Part shown: one piece after another, positions 7,047-30,769 of the stretch
Position numbering within the stretch: the first letter of the stretch is position 1
Layout: every line of letters starts with the position of its first letter
DNA from: a virus
Lineage: Duplodnaviria; Heunggongvirae; Uroviricota; Caudoviricetes
Length of the DNA stretch: 38,749 nt
Strand: one strand, 5' to 3'
IMG/VR virus record: IMGVR_UViG_2579778884_000012
Made by a program: the position numbers and the translations under genes
The notes under the pieces: model-generated
Databases searched by the model: none
Told to the model about the DNA's origin: nothing
What the model saw: only the letters and a program-made list of their open reading frames with translations

Positions 7047-8237
7047 TTAATTGCTGTTAACCGAGGTGACCAGATTTGCCAGGTATTTATCGGTAATACG
7101 CTGGCGCAGGGTCAGGTTTTCAAGAGGAGGCACCGGGGTATAGTCGTAGTCGATATACAGTTTTCCGGCCTTGAGGGTTTCCGCATCGTTGGATTCTTCG
7201 CTGAACCAGCAGGTCGCATCCACGATATAGCCGTTTGTTTTCAGCTCACGGAATTTGGCATTAATGCCGTCAACGATGTCGCGAATCAGCGTTGCGGTGA
7301 TGGGCTTATCCACCGCCCACATGTGCGCCTCAGCCATCGTGTCGGCCAGCACCTGCGCGGTGCGGGTGTAGTTTTCAAAGAGGAACAGCGGGTCATCGGA
7401 GCAGGTACGGTTACCCCAGAAGCGGAAACCGTCGCGGCGAATCAGCGTTGTGACGCCTGACTCGTTAAGCAGGTCAGCATCGGTGCCGGACTCCTGCAAA
7501 TCCCAGAATACAGAGGCGCTGATGCCGGTAACACCGTTCACCCCAACGTTGGACAGCGTTTTATGCCAGCCCTGCTCCTGGTCGATTTTAGCGCGCAGAC
7601 CCAGCGCACGGGCGGTGGCATACGCGGTGGCGGTGGTACTGGTGACCGTATCCCATGCGAGGAAATCCGGCCAGATGACCATCAGCTCACGCTGGCTGAA
7701 ATTCTGGCGGTAGGCTTTCACCTCGGAAATGGTCTTACATCCCCATGCGCTGATATACCCGAAAGCACGCAGCTTCTGACAGACTGATGCCAGTGCAACA
7801 GCCACCTCTTTGGTGTCCAGTCCCGGCACGCCGAGAATACGCGGTTTAACACCAGTTACCGACTCCGCCGCCAGCAGGGCTTTCAGTCCGGTGTACTGAC
7901 CGTTTTCGTCGGTGGTGCCGATGATATTGGAAACGGTCTGCGCGAGTTTCGTTTCCTCGTCGTCGCCGGTGCCGTCTTCCACACGCACGACAACGGTGAC
8001 CGGTTTTGACTGGTCGGCGATAGCCTGCAACGATGCCGCCAGCGTGCCTTTTTTACCGGCCTTTGCAATCGCGCTCTGCACATTGGTAATCAGCACCGGT
8101 TTATTGAGGGGGAAGGTTTCCGCATCCGCATCGCTGGCCGTGCAGACCATGCCGACAATGGCGGTGGATACGGTGGAAATGACGCGGGTGCCGTCGTTAA
8201 TCTCCAGCACCTGCACGCCATGATGATAGTCGCTCAT
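7047..8237 (-). CDS. FI: Contractile tail sheath protein gpFI, 396 aa
   Basis: 396 aa equals P2 FI; start MSDYHHGVQVLEINDGTRVISTVSTAIVGMV. Confidence 0.9.
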   Translation of the reverse strand: MSDYHHGVQVLEINDGTRVISTVSTAIVGMVCTASDADAETFPLNKPVLITNVQSAIAKAGKKGTLAASLQAIADQSKPVTVVVRVEDGTGDDEETKLAQTVSNIIGTTDENGQYTGLKALLAAESVTGVKPRILGVPGLDTKEVAVALASVCQKLRAFGYISAWGCKTISEVKAYRQNFSQRELMVIWPDFLAWDTVTSTTATAYATARALGLRAKIDQEQGWHKTLSNVGVNGVTGISASVFWDLQESGTDADLLNESGVTTLIRRDGFRFWGNRTCSDDPLFLFENYTRTAQVLADTMAEAHMWAVDKPITATLIRDIVDGINAKFRELKTNGYIVDATCWFSEESNDAETLKAGKLYIDYDYTPVPPLENLTLRQRITDKYLANLVTSVNSN

Positions 8238-8671
8238 CCGTTTAACTCCGTGGTTAATGGGTGCAACTATTTTCTGTTGGGCAGTGCATGAGACGCTATT
8301 TGACCTGGCTGGTCAGTGGATGAAACAACAGATAAAGAAAAGGCGGGCAATCAGCCCGCCCGTCCTGATTTGTACTCGCTCAGTTTCCAACTGACAATTT
8401 ACGTAGCCAAAACGCTATCAGCTCTGACAGCCAGCTTTGAGCGAGTCGAAAAAGTTCATACCTTTCTGCTGGTGAAAGTTTAACTAACAGTTCAACCTAT
8501 CAATTAATTGATGAACAGGTTGAGGCGTTTTTAATATCTCTGCGTCATCTGAGACGATTTTGCGCTACAGGATTTACGGCTTATCTGGGGGCATTCTTGA
8601 GCCCTGACTCCTCTGAAAACATAATTAGGCCATACCTGTGACCTGCTCTTCGTTGGTAAGGTTAGCGAATA

Positions 8672-9781
8672 TTAATCTGAGTCCATTTTCCCAAACTCTG
8701 TCAGGCCGAAAACGGAGCTACCAGAAACATGAGCTTGTAAGCCCGCTTCCTGCATGTCACTTAATTCAACTTCTTGGCTATCCTCTAATCCGATAGAGAA
8801 CATGGGATAGGCCCAGTTCCAATTCGGATCAGGAACCAAACTATTATTCTCTATCTTGAAAAAGCTGACCATGAGATGATGCCTTCCCTGTATCGCCTCT
8901 TCATCATTGATGTTGACCAGTACACCAAAGTGCTTGTAGCCGGCTTGTCCATTCTCGAACATTTTTATCTTGGTGCCGTTTCTGAACATCCAAAAAGAAT
9001 GATTTCCAGTGGAATCAGCGACCTGCAAGTTATCTTCGTCAATTTCCCAATTAAGATATTGTTTGATATCAGACTTTGGTTTGAGTTTTTCGTCATTACT
9101 AAACCATTGTATTGCCGGAAGTGGAAGGTGAAGACCTTCCGGCTGGGGAGGCTGACCTGCAGCAATGGAATGCATGATCTCTGTCATTGATGGAAGCCCC
9201 ATCAAATGCCATACATCATGGATATCCTTTTTAAGTATAAGAAGCCCTTTGGATACACCATCCGCGTAAGTTGACTTTAAGCGGACTAGTATGTCCTTGT
9301 TACCATCTTTGTCGAGGTCTTCAATGTTTACTGAAGAAGCCACAACCTCGTCGTCCCCTGCGTCTGGGATGATTGCCCAATACCCAATATCGTAGAATCC
9401 AGGTCTGCCAACCACCTTATCTATCAAACTCTGTCCAGAGGGCTCGAAGACCATCAGGAAACGGCTAAGGGCACCATTTGTGCTCACAGTTCTTCCGTAG
9501 ACTACAACGGAGTTTGAGGTGCTTAGATCGAGAGACTCGCTAGCCACTGAGTCAAACGCCACTGAGTCCAAATGTGTGGCAAGCTGCTGCTGGATGCACT
9601 CCCGAGCCATTTCAACTAATTTTTCGCGAACATCAGCAGATCGTATTGGCTGTGAAGTGAAATGGAAAAGCCCTACTGTAGCCGCTATGCCTATTATTCC
9701 CGAAATAACGGTACTTAGAACCTGCTCCTTTACCACTTTCACAACTTTCATCAATAGCTTCTTCAACTTCACTTCAGGCAC
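8672..9781 (-). CDS. Hypothetical membrane-anchored protein (accessory cargo at the Z/fun position), up to 369 aa
   Basis: Long AT-rich ORF between FI and G. One N-terminal hydrophobic helix (VLSTVISGIIGIAATVGLFHF) followed by about 320 aa of soluble domain with no motif I recognise. The track start is a GTG directly after an in-frame TAG; the first ATG is 10 codons in (9751), so the true start is uncertain. Confidence 0.6.
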   Translation of the reverse strand: MPEVKLKKLLMKVVKVVKEQVLSTVISGIIGIAATVGLFHFTSQPIRSADVREKLVEMARECIQQQLATHLDSVAFDSVASESLDLSTSNSVVVYGRTVSTNGALSRFLMVFEPSGQSLIDKVVGRPGFYDIGYWAIIPDAGDDEVVASSVNIEDLDKDGNKDILVRLKSTYADGVSKGLLILKKDIHDVWHLMGLPSMTEIMHSIAAGQPPQPEGLHLPLPAIQWFSNDEKLKPKSDIKQYLNWEIDEDNLQVADSTGNHSFWMFRNGTKIKMFENGQAGYKHFGVLVNINDEEAIQGRHHLMVSFFKIENNSLVPDPNWNWAYPMFSIGLEDSQEVELSDMQEAGLQAHVSGSSVFGLTEFGKMDSD

Positions 9782-9994
9782 CTAAATACTATTAAACTTG
9801 TCATGGGAAAATCCGATTATTATTGTAGAGAACAACAAAAACTGGCCTCGATTTTAGAGTTTTTCCAGTATCTATTTTCCGACTCGTTCGGCGGTAATCC
9901 ACCGTTATATTCATGAGGCCGGGGTGCACTATAATATTCAACTATATACTCTGTTTGTAGTGGCACATTAAATTTGGTGACAGATATGCATCAC

Positions 9995-10018
9995 GTCCGC
10001 TCCTAGCACAGAGCGGAC
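9995..10018 (-). other. Inverted repeat GTCCGCTC-N8-GAGCGGAC downstream of G
   Basis: 8-bp perfect stems seen directly; no clear T-run. Could be the terminator of the V-G operon or a binding site. Confidence 0.3.
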
Positions 10019-10079
10019 AGTCAGATTAGGTTTTACTCTGTGCCATAGATGAGTAATCTCACACCAGAGCTAATACGAT

Positions 10080-10658
10080 TTATTGCGGCATTTCAGGCCA
10101 TTCTATATCCGGAGCATTTTCCGGCTGAACGCGATTAAGTAGCACACGGTATTTTTTCCAGTGTGTCAGGCTTAACTTTTCTTCCTCGGTAGCCATATCT
10201 AAATCGACAGCATCCTGCAGCATGGCAATGATTTCACCTGCATATGCAATCTGCTCTTTCTTCTGAGACTCAGCCGCTCTGACAAGTGCATCACGCTCTG
10301 CATTCTCATCATTCACCCACGCATTTCCGTTCCATTTCTGATAATCCCCCTCCGGGGAAATGGCTGTCACGTCTGGAGGTAATGCGCCAAGTTCAGAAAT
10401 ATAAATGGCTGCTCCCGTTTTCGTTTCGTAGACAGTCTTTCCGCGATGATCTTCCATCAACTCCCATTTCATTTCATCTGCATTGAAAACGGCTGCATAA
10501 CCAGCAGGAATATCAGGTGGTGCAATATCTGTACTGTTTGCAGGCAGGCCAGTATACGGCGGAATATATGCATCACTTTCGCCAATAAACTCATTGGTTC
10601 CATCAAGTAAATTGAAAACGCGGATAGTTTGTGCTTCTGCACTCATTCTGAAAGCCAT
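10080..10658 (-). CDS. G: Tail fiber assembly chaperone gpG (Tfa-like), 192 aa
   Basis: Immediately downstream of the H tail fiber with its start overlapping the H stop; size and position match P2 gpG / lambda Tfa-type chaperones. Confidence 0.8.
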
Positions 10659-15785: not shown

Positions 15786-16562
15786 ATGGTCAGCTATAAT
15801 GTGACTAATGTGTGGGAGCTAATCGTTTTGTATCTTTTGGTCTTTGCAGTATTAGCATTTTTTAGCTTTGGTAAAAGTAACCTTATGAGGCTTATTGCAC
15901 ATTATTTCAAATTTGGATATTCAGACAAAAAATTAAAAAGACTGGACCGCGAGTGGCGCGACATTCAACTATTTAAAATACTTAACGGAATCAATGTATC
16001 AGGCATCGAAGATGTGAGAATGATACAGCAGGGGCTGATTGATGGAAAACTAAAAACATCGGATTTTTTCCTTACTCGCTTCTGGGGAGACATAACAGAA
16101 CCGCCATGCATCACAAAAACAATGAGTGCAGTCCTGGCCGGAATTCTTTATATTATCTTCGCATGTTGCATACACAACGAGCAATCTGCCATAGTAGAGG
16201 ATGCCATAGCCATACCATATAAAAATATGATGTACCATGTTTATAATGACAAGGTTCTTTTGTTCTCCGACAATAAAACAGATAAGTTCTATAAAGCTTT
16301 TAGCATTGCCGATTGCAAGAGACTGCAGAACACTTTTGTAACAGACACACTTCCTGCAATCGCCTGCAATAAGCTCTTACAGCTAAACGAGGAGGACTCC
16401 GAATGGTTAAGTCAGGAGATTAAAGATAATAACAGCCACAGAAAAACATTATTAATAATATCCCTAATCTATTTCATTTCAGGTGCGTATTTTCATGAAA
16501 GGAGATCACTCAATAACTTCCATCGAGATCGGGTAATAACATTTGAACAGATCGCTGAATAA
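15786..16562 (+). CDS. Hypothetical integral membrane protein (accessory gene at the orf30 position), 258 aa as it stands
   Basis: AT-rich ORF on the strand opposite the late genes, with a good RBS (AAGGAGAGCGTA ATG). Three predicted hydrophobic helices (about residues 12-29, 114-130, 230-245). Its last seven codons and stop lie inside the inferred IS terminal repeat. Confidence 0.65.
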   Translation: MVSYNVTNVWELIVLYLLVFAVLAFFSFGKSNLMRLIAHYFKFGYSDKKLKRLDREWRDIQLFKILNGINVSGIEDVRMIQQGLIDGKLKTSDFFLTRFWGDITEPPCITKTMSAVLAGILYIIFACCIHNEQSAIVEDAIAIPYKNMMYHVYNDKVLLFSDNKTDKFYKAFSIADCKRLQNTFVTDTLPAIACNKLLQLNEEDSEWLSQEIKDNNSHRKTLLIISLIYFISGAYFHERRSLNNFHRDRVITFEQIAE

Positions 16563-16676
16563 CATCGATGGAGATCACTTTTGACTCATTTTGTTATTCA
16601 GTGATCTCCATCAATGTTATTGGAACTTCACAGGTGTGTTGATCTGTATCTTTTGCCATTCCGGTAAAGGATACCT

Positions 16677-18218
16677 ATGCCAACAGTTCCAATTTCTATG
16701 AGAAAACTTAAAGAAATTCTTAGGCTTAAATACGGTGTTGGACTCAGCCATCGACAAATTGGTCGTAGTCTTGCAATCTCCCCTTCCGTTGTATCCAGAT
16801 ATGCTAATCGGGCGGCTCAACTTGGCATAAAGCAGTGGCCCTTACCTACAGGATGGGATGATACAAAACTAAAACATGCGTTCCTTCAGACCCAGGTTAA
16901 GATGAAGAAGCACTCTCTGCCTGACTGGGCTACAGTACACCGGGAACTGCGTAATAAATGCGTGACGCTGCAGCTACTCTGGGAAGAATACTGTGAGCGT
17001 AATCCAGGCGGTTTTTACAGCTATAACCATTACTGCCGGATGTACCGTGAATGGCTCAAAACCACTTCACCATCAATGCGTCAGGTACATAAAGCTGGCG
17101 AAAAACTTTTCGTTGATTACTGTGGACCTACCGTTGGCGTTACCGACCCTGAGACCGGAGAAATAAGAACTGCTCAGGTCATCGTAGCTGTTCTCGGGGC
17201 ATCAAGTTACACATGGGCAGAGGCCACCTGGTCTCAGCAGCTTGAAGACTGGGTGATGAGTCATGTTCGCTGCTTCCAGTGGTTGGGTGGCGTTCCTGAA
17301 CTTGTTGTTCCGGACAATCTGAAAAGCGCCACATCCAGGGCATGTAAGTATGATCCTGACGTTAACCCTACCTACCAGCAGATGCTTGAGCATTATAATG
17401 TCGCAGTTTTGCCTGCGCGGCCACGTAAACCGAAAGATAAAGCCAAAGCTGAAGTTGGCGTTCAGGTTGTTGAACGCTGGATCATGGCCCGAATCAGGCA
17501 TGAGATCTTCTACAGCCTTGCATCGCTTAATCAGCGCATTCGGGAGTTGCTGGAAAGACTGAATAACAAAATAATGCAGAAGTTGGGTTATTCACGTGCA
17601 GAACTCTTCATCCAGCTTGATAAACCCGCACTGAAGCCTCTTCCTGAAGCCAGTTACAGTTACACCCTGGTGAAGAAAGTCAGAGTTCATGCCGATTACC
17701 ACGTGGAAATCGACAAACATTACTACTCGGTTCCATGTTCGCTGTTAGGCCAGCAACTGGAAGCATGGATCTCCGGAGAACTGGTAAGACTCTTCAATCA
17801 GGGGCAGGAGGTTGCTGTGCACCCGCGCAAGCGTACTTATGGCTACAGTACCCGCAACGAGCACATGCCTGAAGCTCATCGACAGCATGCCACCTGGACG
17901 CCAGAGCGTCTTCTGGAATGGGCGGGGCACATAGGCAGTGAAACTCATAGTTATGTGCTTCATATACTGAACTCTCGTCCACATCCGGAACAAAGCTATC
18001 GCTTCTGCCTTGGACTCCTGAACCTTCATAAAAAATACAGTAAAGCCAGACTTAATGCAGCATGTGCAAGAGCTCTGAAAACAAAGGTATGGCGTCTGTC
18101 AGGTATTAAATCGATCCTGGAAAAAGGTCTGGATAAACAACCTGTTCAGGATCCAAAACCAGATCTGTTATCCACGATGGAACACGAAAACGTACGCGGC
18201 AGTGAGTATTACCACTGA
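16677..18218 (+). CDS. istA: IS21-family transposase IstA, 513 aa
   Basis: N-terminal helix-turn-helix (LSHRQIGRSLAISPSVVSRY), central DDE-type integrase-like region, followed 12 bp later by istB; typical IS21 layout. Confidence 0.85.
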   Translation: MPTVPISMRKLKEILRLKYGVGLSHRQIGRSLAISPSVVSRYANRAAQLGIKQWPLPTGWDDTKLKHAFLQTQVKMKKHSLPDWATVHRELRNKCVTLQLLWEEYCERNPGGFYSYNHYCRMYREWLKTTSPSMRQVHKAGEKLFVDYCGPTVGVTDPETGEIRTAQVIVAVLGASSYTWAEATWSQQLEDWVMSHVRCFQWLGGVPELVVPDNLKSATSRACKYDPDVNPTYQQMLEHYNVAVLPARPRKPKDKAKAEVGVQVVERWIMARIRHEIFYSLASLNQRIRELLERLNNKIMQKLGYSRAELFIQLDKPALKPLPEASYSYTLVKKVRVHADYHVEIDKHYYSVPCSLLGQQLEAWISGELVRLFNQGQEVAVHPRKRTYGYSTRNEHMPEAHRQHATWTPERLLEWAGHIGSETHSYVLHILNSRPHPEQSYRFCLGLLNLHKKYSKARLNAACARALKTKVWRLSGIKSILEKGLDKQPVQDPKPDLLSTMEHENVRGSEYYH

Positions 18219-18229
18219 TACGGGATCCA

Positions 18230-18979
18230 ATGATGAATCATCTTTACGAACAACTGACCGCACTTAAACTCACCGGCTTCCGTGATGCGCTTAAAAAGCA
18301 ACTTGCTCAACCGGGCACATACCAGGAGCTGGGCTTCGAAGAACGCCTGTCATTACTGACAGCAGAAGAACTAACCTGCCGTGAAAACAGGAAGGCAGAG
18401 CGTCTGATCAAACATGCACGGTTCAGACTTAATGCTGAGTTATCAAAGCTGGATTATCGTAACAATAGAGGGCTGGACAGGGCCCTCATCCGTTCACTCA
18501 GTCAGGGAAACTGGTTAACCCTGAAACAAAATATTTTACTGACCGGGGCCACCGGCAGCGGTAAAACGTTCCTGGCATGTGCACTTGGTCATAATGCCTG
18601 CCGACAGGGATACAAGGTCTACTATTATCGCCTTAAAGCGCTGATGGAACAGTGCTATCAGGGGCATGCTGATGGAAGATACAGCAAACTTTTGACCAGG
18701 CTGAATAATAGCGATCTGCTGCTTCTGGATGACTGGGGGCTGGAACCTCTCTCATCAGAACAGCGTAGCGACCTGCTGGAAATAGTGGATCTGATGTACC
18801 AACGAGGCTCAATCATCGTAGTGAGCCAGTTGCCGGTGGAAAACTGGTACAAAATGATCGGAGACTCCACACATGCGGATGCCATCCTAGATCGACTGGT
18901 TCATGGCAGTATCAAGATCGAACTTAAAGGAGAATCAATGCGGAAAATACAATCTCCGTTGACCGAAGGAGATCAGTGA
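18230..18979 (+). CDS. istB: IS21-family ATP-binding helper protein IstB, 249 aa
   Basis: Walker A motif GATGSGKT and Walker B LLLLDDWG; DnaC-like AAA+ fold typical of IstB. Confidence 0.88.
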   Translation: MMNHLYEQLTALKLTGFRDALKKQLAQPGTYQELGFEERLSLLTAEELTCRENRKAERLIKHARFRLNAELSKLDYRNNRGLDRALIRSLSQGNWLTLKQNILLTGATGSGKTFLACALGHNACRQGYKVYYYRLKALMEQCYQGHADGRYSKLLTRLNNSDLLLLDDWGLEPLSSEQRSDLLEIVDLMYQRGSIIVVSQLPVENWYKMIGDSTHADAILDRLVHGSIKIELKGESMRKIQSPLTEGDQ

Positions 18980-28827: not shown

Positions 28828-29769
28828 ATGCAAGGTGAAGTTGACGAACAGCAACCAAATGAGATTATTTCGGAGTTTGGATACTATCCAGTAGAAGTTA
28901 ACATTGAGACTGAACAATTTTCTTTGCGTACTTTACCCGGTCTTATTGAGAACGTGGAACGTATTAACAATGATAAAAACGTTGTTAATGGTTGGATATA
29001 CCCTGGGAATCGAAAGGTATATAACCTTAATGGTGACACATGCACAATGCCTTATAGTTACCGAGTATTCGGCATGCCCAAAACGCACACACTAAAATTA
29101 AAAAACACATCCTCGTTAGAAACTCTCAACTTTGTTGTGTGGTGCCTCTCTTTTTTCAAGGGTATAAGATTGACAACCACTGACGCTGGTTTTCTTGATG
29201 CAACCACTATCAAGCCCACTAAGTTAACCGACTTTATTCTCGTTGGATGCTCTGAAAAAGAAGTAATAGAGCTAGCACTTAACTATATAAAAGACAAACA
29301 AAAAGATGATCGCTCCATTAAAAGAATAGCTGCGGTGATACACTCCCTATTCCTGTCACATAACCCACTATACCTTTCCTTTGAGAAATTCCAGTATCTT
29401 TATATGGCTCTTGATTGCTGTTTTGCTATAGCATGGGATGAAAGGGATAAAGTCATTAAAGAGAAAAAACCATCTCATCAAAATAGAGTATATTGGATGT
29501 GCGAAAATTACGGTGTAAAAATCCCGTCATGGGCAACAGATGAATGTAATGTTTCAGTTATACGCAATGATAATTTTCATGAAGCCATTTTTAATGGGCA
29601 ACCGCTTGGTTTCTCTAGTATCAATGATTGTCAATATGGTAGCGATATATTGCTACAAATGCAGGCTCTGGTATGTCGTCTACTAGCGGCAATACTCTCT
29701 GTAAATGATCGTAAATATATCGCATCTACAATCAGCTCGATAGAGTACCATTCATTAAAATTAACTTAA
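28828..29769 (+). CDS. Hypothetical protein with C-terminal HEPN-like R-x4-H motif (accessory cargo at the old/tin position), 313 aa
   Basis: AT-rich ORF with RBS GGAGAAAGTT ATG. Residues 246-251 are R-N-D-N-F-H (CGC AAT GAT AAT TTT CAT, 29563..29580), the HEPN-type motif, about 60 residues from the C-terminus. Not P2 Old or Tin by size or sequence. Confidence 0.6.
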   Translation: MQGEVDEQQPNEIISEFGYYPVEVNIETEQFSLRTLPGLIENVERINNDKNVVNGWIYPGNRKVYNLNGDTCTMPYSYRVFGMPKTHTLKLKNTSSLETLNFVVWCLSFFKGIRLTTTDAGFLDATTIKPTKLTDFILVGCSEKEVIELALNYIKDKQKDDRSIKRIAAVIHSLFLSHNPLYLSFEKFQYLYMALDCCFAIAWDERDKVIKEKKPSHQNRVYWMCENYGVKIPSWATDECNVSVIRNDNFHEAIFNGQPLGFSSINDCQYGSDILLQMQALVCRLLAAILSVNDRKYIASTISSIEYHSLKLT

Positions 29770-30088: not shown

Positions 30089-30769
30089 CTACATCTTTAT
30101 TGCATATTTATTAAAAGACGCCCAGTTCAATAAAAAAACATTATTCATATACCATTCAATATAATTTTTATTTTTAGATTGACTGTCAAGTAGCACACAA
30201 ACATCAACCTGTTTATCAATCAATTTTGCAATATAAACCACAAACTCAACACTCGAATATCTCTTTGTGCCTAGCAAATATAATATTTCATCTGACAAAT
30301 AATTAGACTCATGTGAAAAGACATTATCATTTAACAAAATCAACCCGCCAATCGAGTCATTTAAATCCAAAACATCCTTTGTTGCATTTATTTGCTTATT
30401 AGCTTCCTTAACTATCTTTGTTTTAATATTTTCATAAGCAAAGTTCATTATATCATTTCTAAATCGCTTTGAGTCTGGGTGTCTTTTTATCAACTCTTCT
30501 AAATGAATAGCACCATGCCAGTTTTTTGCAAGCCAACTATCAGTTTTAACCAACTCATTCAGTTTATCATTGACATTCTTGACCCTGTCAGAAAAAAGAC
30601 TTTTCATCTCCAAAATTATCTTTTTATTATCAATAAGATAATCTGCCATCTTGCGATTCTGACCATCCTTCATCCGGAACTTATGATGAATATCATCAAT
30701 AGAAATCCCTTTTTCATGCTCAACAATGAATCTCTTAACATTGTTTTCTAATTCGCTGTATTGTTTCAT
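30089..30769 (-). CDS. Hypothetical protein (accessory cargo), 226 aa, probably co-transcribed with the upstream DUF2158-like gene
   Basis: AT-rich Lys/Asn-rich ORF; start 27 bp after the small upstream gene's stop, with a GGGGGA RBS; no motif I recognise. Confidence 0.6.
   Translation of the reverse strand: MKQYSELENNVKRFIVEHEKGISIDDIHHKFRMKDGQNRKMADYLIDNKKIILEMKSLFSDRVKNVNDKLNELVKTDSWLAKNWHGAIHLEELIKRHPDSKRFRNDIMNFAYENIKTKIVKEANKQINATKDVLDLNDSIGGLILLNDNVFSHESNYLSDEILYLLGTKRYSSVEFVVYIAKLIDKQVDVCVLLDSQSKNKNYIEWYMNNVFLLNWASFNKYAIKM

Follow-up and report, generated by a model that had tools for sequence, protein, structure and literature searches.

Which function is encoded between the tail sheath gene FI and the tail fiber assembly gene G of a P2-like prophage, at the position where P2 itself carries Z/fun? 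Fun(Z) of P2 excludes phage T5 and is a case of lysogenic conversion. The window (the whole stretch of 38,749 nucleotides analyzed here, IMG/VR record IMGVR_UViG_2579778884_000012) is a complete P2-like prophage, arranged as Ogr, D, U, T, E, FII, FI, slot, G, H, I, J, W, V, onward to Q, and then A and int. The initial annotation read the gene in its slot as a replacement of Z/fun, and the architecture of its product as fitting a superinfection-exclusion or abortive-infection protein acting at the envelope. Variable, often defensive cargo in this slot is already known, the slot being a recognized hotspot for accessory and defense genes (bioRxiv 10.1101/2024.10.15.618418; 10.64898/2026.02.27.708500), and P2 hotspots are a repeated source of new anti-phage systems; the gene family considered here is itself uncharacterized. 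The gene is hereafter called geneB.

The Gene and Its Start Codon

The longest open reading frame of the slot lies at 8672..9781 on the minus strand, is intact, and encodes 369 amino acids from a GTG at 9781, exactly as initially annotated. PHROG 15038, a family with no assigned function, matches it over its full length (E 3e-259), and at the identical locus of E. coli O25b:H4 RefSeq records a 359-aa hypothetical protein (WP_001599801.1) starting at ATG 9751, between neighbors labeled “phage tail sheath protein” and “tail fiber assembly protein.” The reading frame therefore stands as described, but a start at GTG 9781 is disfavored. Both PHROG 15038 and RefSeq begin the protein at ATG 9751 (359 aa), homologs have N-termini of the form MKLKE(L/I)LM from a GTG equivalent to window position 9772 (366 aa), and an AGGTG Shine-Dalgarno sequence sits 6 nt 5' of that GTG, whereas the 369-aa form has no Shine-Dalgarno sequence and a 1-nt difference in three related loci (L002, L004, and L005) excludes the longer reading. 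GTG 9772 or ATG 9751 is thus more likely than GTG 9781 to be the true start; since homologs begin with MKLKE(L/I)LM and AGGTG lies 6 nt upstream, GTG 9772 is preferred, and 366 aa appears the most likely length. The choice of start alters nothing but the length of the lysine-rich N-terminal tail.

Values of dN/dS of 0.11–0.22 for geneB against five relatives, and of 0.10–0.26 within the family, indicate that the family is under purifying selection, also in the comparisons that include the window copy, and they therefore point to a protein-coding gene. Together with the PHROG match and the homologs, they mark geneB as a real gene rather than a chance reading frame. The AT-richness remarked on initially holds as well (45% GC, vs. 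57% for FI and 51% for the window), though G is also at 46%.

A Cassette in the Z/fun Hotspot

Broadly, geneB lies between FI (7047-8237) and G (10080-10658), as initially described and as RefSeq annotates the identical locus, with flanks of 434 and 298 bp. These lengths agree with the approximately 430 and 300 bp first given, but the description of the flanks as plain non-coding DNA does not hold, since they contain P2 Z-region repeats, the pF region with a terminator, a 230-nt tail that belongs to geneB, and an insertion sequence remnant. On the FI side, positions 8238..8445 (minus strand) form a P2 core flank corresponding to the “right inverted repeat” side of P2-EC Z-region records, with 92–94% identity to Wphi, P2-type, and Yersinia L-413C phages and 86% to the P2 pF region. 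Here a Rho-independent terminator (8341-8361, minus strand; -20.7 kcal/mol, z -4.7), followed by UUUUCUUU and then by the conserved pF late-promoter region, would end the predicted geneB transcript. On the G side, positions 9993..10079 (minus strand) match the “left inverted repeat” of the same records and enclose a 9-bp GC hairpin (9995-10018) with no U tract. Both conserved P2 core flanks align with the repeats of the P2-EC Z-region and with pF of P2, which leaves a variable insert of about 8446-9992. GeneB is accessory cargo of the P2 Z/fun hotspot, and the claim that it replaces Z/fun is borne out as far as position goes: in P2 this slot houses fun(Z), an unrelated gene that reads from the opposite strand.

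The insert itself is composite. Upstream of geneB, a leader of about 45–55 nt (9782..9826, minus strand; AATAATAATCGGATTTTCCCATGACAAGTTTAATAGTA...AGGTG) is conserved with homologous loci and contains the Shine-Dalgarno sequence; it is kept even in a relative of 71% identity (L011) in spite of its different other flanks, which points to a functional 5' region of geneB. Downstream, a 3' tail of 230 nt (8441..8671, minus strand) accompanies the gene in six contexts at 85–91% identity and is absent from more distant relatives. A function for this tail was considered and dropped, as its conservation is limited to the close subfamily, it has no Rfam match, and no stable fold was found near the stop codon. 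Between the leader and the G-proximal flank lies the 3' remnant of an IS3-family element (9827..9992, minus strand), comprising the transposase C-terminus and the right end “...GTTGTTCTCTAC”; RefSeq records the transposase C-terminus as a pseudogene at 9820-9954, reading “...YYSAPRPHEYNGGLPP....” This scar, 55 nt upstream of the start, had been overlooked in the first reading of the window. L028, the closest relative (91% protein identity), is homologous to the window from “AATAATAATCGG” (at about 9826) to about 8440; this homology starts exactly at the IS3 end, 55 nt 5' of GTG 9772, and the shared cassette consists of the short leader, the reading frame, and the 230-nt tail. The remnant is probably the scar of the event bringing the cassette into the P2 slot: an IS3-family event would have delivered the leader of 55 nt, the reading frame, and the tail, leaving 166 bp behind and parting geneB from its usual upstream neighbor.

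Distribution and Expression

The geneB family is very rare, uncharacterized, and absent from defense databases. Close homologs make up 15 clusters among 5.8 billion proteins, a profile search of 1.84 billion cluster representatives gave 68 matches (nearly all of 310–420 aa and of the same architecture), the representative genomes of approximately 100,000 species yielded a single match (in Pantoea latae), and the family occurs on three IMG/VR contigs. Tblastn with geneB returned no homolog from GenBank phages or PLSDB plasmids, and a scan for distant relatives by the WNWG motif found none in the viral and genome collections. Protein and family profiles gave nothing significant against Pfam, PADLOC, NCBIfam, and PDB sequences; no PADLOC-DB 2.0 defense HMM matched geneB at E<=1, and no homology to any known exclusion or defense protein was found in searches of Pfam, PADLOC, PHROG, and other families. 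Confident homology to a phage structural or housekeeping family, which would have spoken against the initial reading, was also looked for and none was detected. A literature search by accession, PHROG identifier, and architecture found no paper on geneB.

Among complete E. coli genomes, geneB is confined to the P2 prophage of the window type, in the ST131 lineage. About 52 complete E. coli genomes, every one of the ST131/O25b:H4 type (e.g., JJ2434), share the FI–G stretch of 1.84 kb at 100% identity, and the roughly 55 E. coli genomes that carry geneB are >99% identical at the locus; with such near-identity, the intactness of the gene is uninformative on selection within the ST131 lineage. In a strict scan of the coding strand upstream of geneB, no sigma-70 promoter of >=9/12 was found; a relaxed scan gave best candidates of 8/12, one of which arises where the IS meets the cassette (TCGAGG-18-TACAAT), but there was no evident hybrid promoter derived from the IS. 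[quoted passage not shown] Furthermore, ISEc52 is inserted within geneB in one ST131-related strain (R10), and the gene is therefore dispensable.

These observations bear on the least favorable explanation, namely that geneB is silent hitch-hiking cargo, unexpressed and without a phenotype, which stays intact only through the youth of a clonal ST131 prophage lineage. The near-identity of the carriers, the upstream scar, the want of a clear promoter, and the disrupted copy would all be expected if this were so; purifying selection across the family, comparisons with the window copy included, is not, and neither is the retention of both a leader with its Shine-Dalgarno sequence and a downstream terminator. 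We consider this explanation unlikely, and the least likely of those weighed here. If geneB were inactive, it would be one more unannotated accessory gene acquired via an insertion-sequence event.

A Co-Diverging Upstream Gene in Close Relatives

Within the close subfamily, geneB is preceded on the same strand, at a distance of about 157–180 nt, by a gene for a 245-aa protein, here called geneA. Five independent contexts show this arrangement: L002/3, L004, L010, L012, and, as the closest relative (91% identity), L028-31. The first reading of the window had overlooked this partner gene of the closest relatives. GeneA belongs to phrog_21382, for which no function is given, and has a conserved “IRNIMAHSDG” stretch with an R-x4-H motif. 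It has no match in PADLOC and no detectable family, and tblastn of geneA against GenBank phages gave no homolog. Assignment of geneA to DUF5677 or HEPN found no support in hhalign, Pfam, or PDB comparisons, and the R-x4-H motif is the only lead left. For the same pairs, identities are 72–88% for geneA and 76–86% for geneB; the two genes co-diverge and have therefore traveled together for long, which makes the pair a candidate two-gene system.

In the window, geneA is absent upstream of geneB, and the IS3 remnant lies at that position. GeneB may thus need a partner that is missing from the window, given that five close contexts, the 91%-identical relative among them, carry a co-diverging geneA. 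In its fullest form, this explanation holds that geneB is the orphaned half of a two-gene module with a cytoplasmic geneA product, for instance an envelope sensor or anchor controlling a cytoplasmic effector of the abortive-infection type, and that the window copy lost geneA and its native upstream region via the IS3 event and is inactive or partly active. The onset of homology to L028 right at the IS3 end, the lack of a good remaining promoter, and the tolerated IS insertion in strain R10 are in line with it, as are the recurrence and co-divergence of the pair. Nonetheless, a Pantoea prophage lineage, L011, L025, and every distant relative have geneB without geneA, and E. coli plasmids carry geneA-like genes that have a GIY-YIG nuclease as neighbor and no accompanying geneB. 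Separate transcription units are suggested by the gap of about 157–180 nt and by the conserved leader, the predicted cytoplasmic part of geneB (about 17 residues) offers little for signaling, and the HEPN-like motif of geneA, a protein with no detectable family, is a tentative lead. We regard the orphaned-half explanation as rather unlikely, although it is the main rival of the reading favored below.

A universal partner gene was also considered and rejected: in the Pantoea lineage, unrelated genes for a 275-aa protein and for a 251-aa protein with two transmembrane segments precede geneB, and in distant relatives the genes found upstream are related neither to geneA nor to one another. With no family-wide upstream partner and several lone members (L011, L025), autonomous action of geneB is supported.

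Protein Architecture and Predicted Topology

The initial annotation described one N-terminal transmembrane segment and a soluble domain of about 320 residues, and this architecture holds. By Kyte-Doolittle analysis, a hydrophobic helix (VLSTVISGIIGIAATVGLFHF; 9659..9721, minus strand) spans residues 18-38 of the 366-aa form and gives a single peak of 2.13 in a 19-residue window, the next best value being 0.79; a single N-terminal helix is conserved in 33 of the 35 aligned family members. The lysine-rich tail before the helix, MKLKKLLMKVVKVVKEQ, carries charges of +6/-1, and the stretch after it +3/-4. Because the positive-inside rule applied to this bias places the N-terminus inside, the helix is predicted to be a signal anchor (N-in), with the domain of approximately 325 residues in the periplasm.

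Structure prediction, which had been suggested as a check along with the initial annotation, depended strongly on the alignment: AlphaFold with 14 close sequences reached a pLDDT of 56, and with 35 diverse family members a pLDDT of 91 and a pTM of 0.84. Foldseek matches of the first model (DDB1 and others, TM ~0.2) were discarded, as that model is poor. The second (in 359-aa numbering) shows the single anchor as a long transmembrane helix (residues 2-32). Residues 38-57 form another helix, which packs against an antiparallel sheet; more sheets of four strands follow, then a linker rich in loops (198-238) and a second beta-rich half; its N-terminal part is cystatin-like and its C-terminal part a WNW domain. 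A search of BFVD viral structures with the model gave nothing at E<1e-3, and the fold, as modeled, is confidently predicted and has no known structural relative.

The initial statement that the soluble domain shows no recognizable motif is not quite right, as it overlooked one blade of the FG-GAP/VCBS type at residues 146-183 (9224..9337, minus strand; SSVNIEDLDKDGNKDILV...LLILKKD). The DxDxDGxxD loop of this blade, DLDKDGNKD (9293-9319, minus strand), is presumably calcium-binding. Matches of the family profile fall on the repeats of canonical FG-GAP/VCBS proteins (13 stretches of P0049 and 11 of P0057), and one UniRef homolog is named “VCBS repeat-containing protein”; Pfam FG-GAP/VCBS models gave no match to geneB at threshold, and one distant relative matched FG-GAP with an E of 0.004, below the cut-off. 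Motifs of the FG-GAP/VCBS type are typical of extracytoplasmic proteins. The C-terminal half (8729..8986, minus strand) contains near-invariant residues, i.e., RNG(T/G), D, HH, DxxWNW(A/G)YPMxS, and AH, and these polar and aromatic positions suggest a ligand- or metal-binding site.

Genomic Neighborhoods of the Family

A survey of the loci that carry relatives of geneB found them amid anti-phage genes. Members of the family occupy prophage accessory-gene slots, integrative and conjugative elements, plasmids, and defense islands, in at least 13 distinct mobile or defense-like contexts; this association with defense islands is qualitative, made with no null expectation. A prophage accessory slot, where a superinfection-exclusion gene would be looked for, houses geneB in the P2-like prophage of the window and again in a Pantoea prophage (L005-7, L017/18), in which the slot follows the tail-tip gene and includes GmrSD, one variant adding NgoMIV restriction-modification and DUF4238. 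Two contexts are islands, one of the CP4-57 type (L002/3) and one in Erwinia adjoining a P4-type primase (L004), and another is an integrase-proximal islet (L010). DUF4238 also appears in a conjugative element, together with EcoRII restriction-modification and a reverse transcriptase (L011). In L019, the neighbors are a type IIG restriction-modification system and genes for a Schlafen-type ATPase, PLD-SNF2, and radical SAM. A cobalamin operon in L021/22 is interrupted by a toxin-antitoxin pair along with DUF5677 and AAA_16, and L023 is a mobilizable plasmid on which a PARIS ATPase of the fused AriAB-like kind (E 2e-61) accompanies a PDC-S05-like protein. Further contexts hold an HNH gene with a C5 methylase (L024) or DndB-like and YaaC genes (L025). 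Restriction-modification, GmrSD, DUF4238, PARIS-like, DndB-like, and toxin-antitoxin neighbors fit an anti-phage role at the envelope, and DUF4238 is a validated single-gene defense from a P2 hotspot (PMC9122126).

The same neighborhoods can be set against another reading, in which geneB is an envelope protein with no role toward phages: an orphan immunity protein against a periplasm-acting toxin of the T6SS, CDI, or colicin type, or a lysogenic-conversion factor altering envelope properties or the interaction with the host in ExPEC ST131. A membrane-tethered, periplasm-facing single-domain protein on mobile elements, as predicted for geneB, would also suit an immunity function. A Tlde1-like fragment is present in L004, and in L012 a class 3 lipase gene is convergent with the geneB homolog. 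P2 hotspots house non-defense cargo too, such as cytolethal distending toxin (PMC9122126). On the other hand, none of the at least 13 contexts has an adjacent cognate effector gene, the neighbors are mostly restriction-modification and other anti-phage genes, and geneB has no similarity to known immunity or virulence families. A non-phage envelope role seems unlikely.

Proposed Mode of Action

The reading we favor, if tentatively and with somewhat less than even confidence, is that geneB is a stand-alone, early-acting, superinfection-exclusion-like anti-phage candidate at the envelope. The protein would be a type II (N-in, C-out) inner-membrane protein whose beta-rich, probably calcium-binding domain of about 325 residues faces the periplasm, tethered to the outer face of the inner membrane and offering a propeller-like surface for interaction. 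Its target could be a host envelope factor that the phage needs, or else a component that an incoming phage exposes on its way through the periplasm (tail tip, tape-measure or ejection proteins, tail lysozyme). In both cases, the phage genome would not get across the inner membrane, and the cell would survive. As almost all of its mass is predicted to lie outside the cytoplasmic membrane, geneB should meet periplasmic things only, which favors a block at entry. Under the predicted topology, this is the more natural of the two options initially offered, and a stand-alone abortive-infection effector the less natural one. The initial reading is partly supported, by the architecture, the slot, and the defense-type neighbors, but finds no backing in homology to known exclusion or defense proteins or in a clear promoter.

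A broader proposal, which is rather doubtful at present, is that geneB founds an undescribed family of periplasm-facing, calcium-binding, propeller-like inner-membrane proteins that stop phages from outside the cytoplasm. They would do so on their own or in a new two-gene system, where they would sense events at the envelope and the 245-aa R-x4-H protein would be the other half, and they would have spread among prophage slots, plasmids, and integrative and conjugative elements, in Enterobacterales and farther afield. If geneB does block entry from the periplasm, the few envelope-level defenses would gain both a new fold and a new target, and such a block would be relevant to phage therapy against pandemic ST131. 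The geneA-geneB pair and the periplasmic propeller-like domain would raise the value of the system if its activity were confirmed.

Comparison With Known Systems

FG-GAP/VCBS beta-propellers are represented by integrin alpha, CRTAC1, and bacterial VCBS proteins; in contrast to these, geneB has one such repeat only, and the rest of its predicted fold is not a canonical seven-bladed propeller. Among defenses, SNIPE (PD-lambda-1) is a single-gene, single-pass inner-membrane protein of E. coli that acts at the site of genome injection, with a cytoplasmic DUF4041 domain, a GIY-YIG nuclease, and its N-terminus outside the membrane (PMC13190303). GeneB, as predicted, is likewise a single-gene, single-pass inner-membrane protein of the E. 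coli accessory genome, but has no nuclease or known enzymatic domain, is predicted to be periplasmic, and matches no PADLOC model. By analogy, SNIPE also advises caution, as a single-pass defense protein can have its bulk in the cytoplasm (PMC13190303).

P2 Fun(Z) shares with geneB the G–FI slot of a P2-type genome and the condition of non-essential accessory cargo. It differs in being a 528-aa protein with a P-loop (GEKGTGKT), no transmembrane helix, and the opposite orientation, and hhalign of the geneB family profile against Fun(Z) gave a probability of 0.1, i.e., no detectable homology.

Prophage superinfection-exclusion proteins with a membrane anchor include lactococcal Sie2009, HK97 gp15, T4 Imm and Sp, and TP-J34 Ltp. 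Proteins of the Sie2009 type have an N-terminal anchor and the protein bulk outside the membrane, and the same is predicted for geneB. P22 SieA is a further membrane-located superinfection-exclusion protein of a prophage (PMC10461980). GeneB differs from this group in having no sequence relationship to it, matching a single PHROG with no assigned function, and in being much larger, with about 325 aa beyond the membrane in a propeller-like, FG-GAP-containing predicted fold. It nonetheless resembles the group as a prophage-encoded single gene in an accessory slot, with a product that is, by prediction, located in the membrane.

Boundaries of the cassette

Upstream of geneB, the gene for the membrane-anchored protein, an IS3-family element has left its 3' part (C-terminus of the transposase and right end) on the minus strand at 9820-9992. 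This remnant adjoins the geneB cassette at the exact point where homology to the closest relative starts, and is probably the scar of the cassette's entry into the P2 slot. Within the neighboring G gene, a weak match to the Rfam family IS009 was also found (10117-10200, minus strand; 23.8 bits, E 0.006, where the gathering score is 117), and it is most likely due to chance.

On the other side, a tail of 230 nt follows the geneB stop codon (8441-8671). It accompanies geneB in six contexts with 85-91% identity, and has been lost from relatives at a greater distance. No Rfam family matches it, and it forms no stable structure close to the stop codon. RefSeq annotates here a hypothetical protein of 55 aa (8316-8483, plus strand), which is probably spurious, since its ORF lies partly in P2 core DNA and partly in the tail of the cassette, and also covers terminator sequence.

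The cassette gene is dispensable, because E. coli R10, a strain whose prophage belongs to this lineage, has an IS3-like element, ISEc52, inserted in geneB (L014, 3074-5195).

Other accessory sites of the prophage

In the P2 late region, S and V are separated by an IS21-family element (IstA, 16677-18218; IstB, 18230-18979), adjoined by an ORF of 258 aa and unknown function (phrog_2407, 15786-16562); together (15786-18979) they make this site a third accessory slot. The insertion may have rendered the prophage defective. Between Q and A, the tin/old hotspot carries two ORFs of unknown function, encoding 313 aa (phrog_5937, 28828-29769, plus strand) and 226 aa (phrog_20483, 30089-30769, minus strand), neither of which matched Pfam or PADLOC; both are further candidate defense genes of the same prophage.

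Related genes in other elements

GeneA, encoding a protein of 245 aa (phrog_21382), lies upstream of geneB in five contexts, and both co-diverge. The coordinates of geneA and of a 242-aa relative are those in L028 (1116-1853), L002 (7086-7823), L010 (2441-3178), L012 (6973-7710) and L013 (5017-5745). The geneA protein conserves an R-x4-H motif (IRNIMAHSDG) and has no match in Pfam or PADLOC. The 242-aa relative occurs without geneB on E. coli plasmids, immediately 3' of a GIY-YIG nuclease gene and near TerY, PP2C and vWA genes.

In the Pantoea prophage (L005-L007, L017, L018; 5921-9080), two co-oriented genes of unknown function precede geneB, encoding 275 aa (phrog_13337) and 251 aa (phrog_8999, with two N-terminal transmembrane helices), and a GmrSD gene faces it; this cluster, located 3' of the tail-tip gene, occupies a site comparable to the P2 slot. 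A distant member of the geneB family is carried by a small mobilizable plasmid (L023, 2558-6212), downstream of a fused AriAB-like ATPase of the PARIS type (E 2e-61) and a PDC-S05-like protein.
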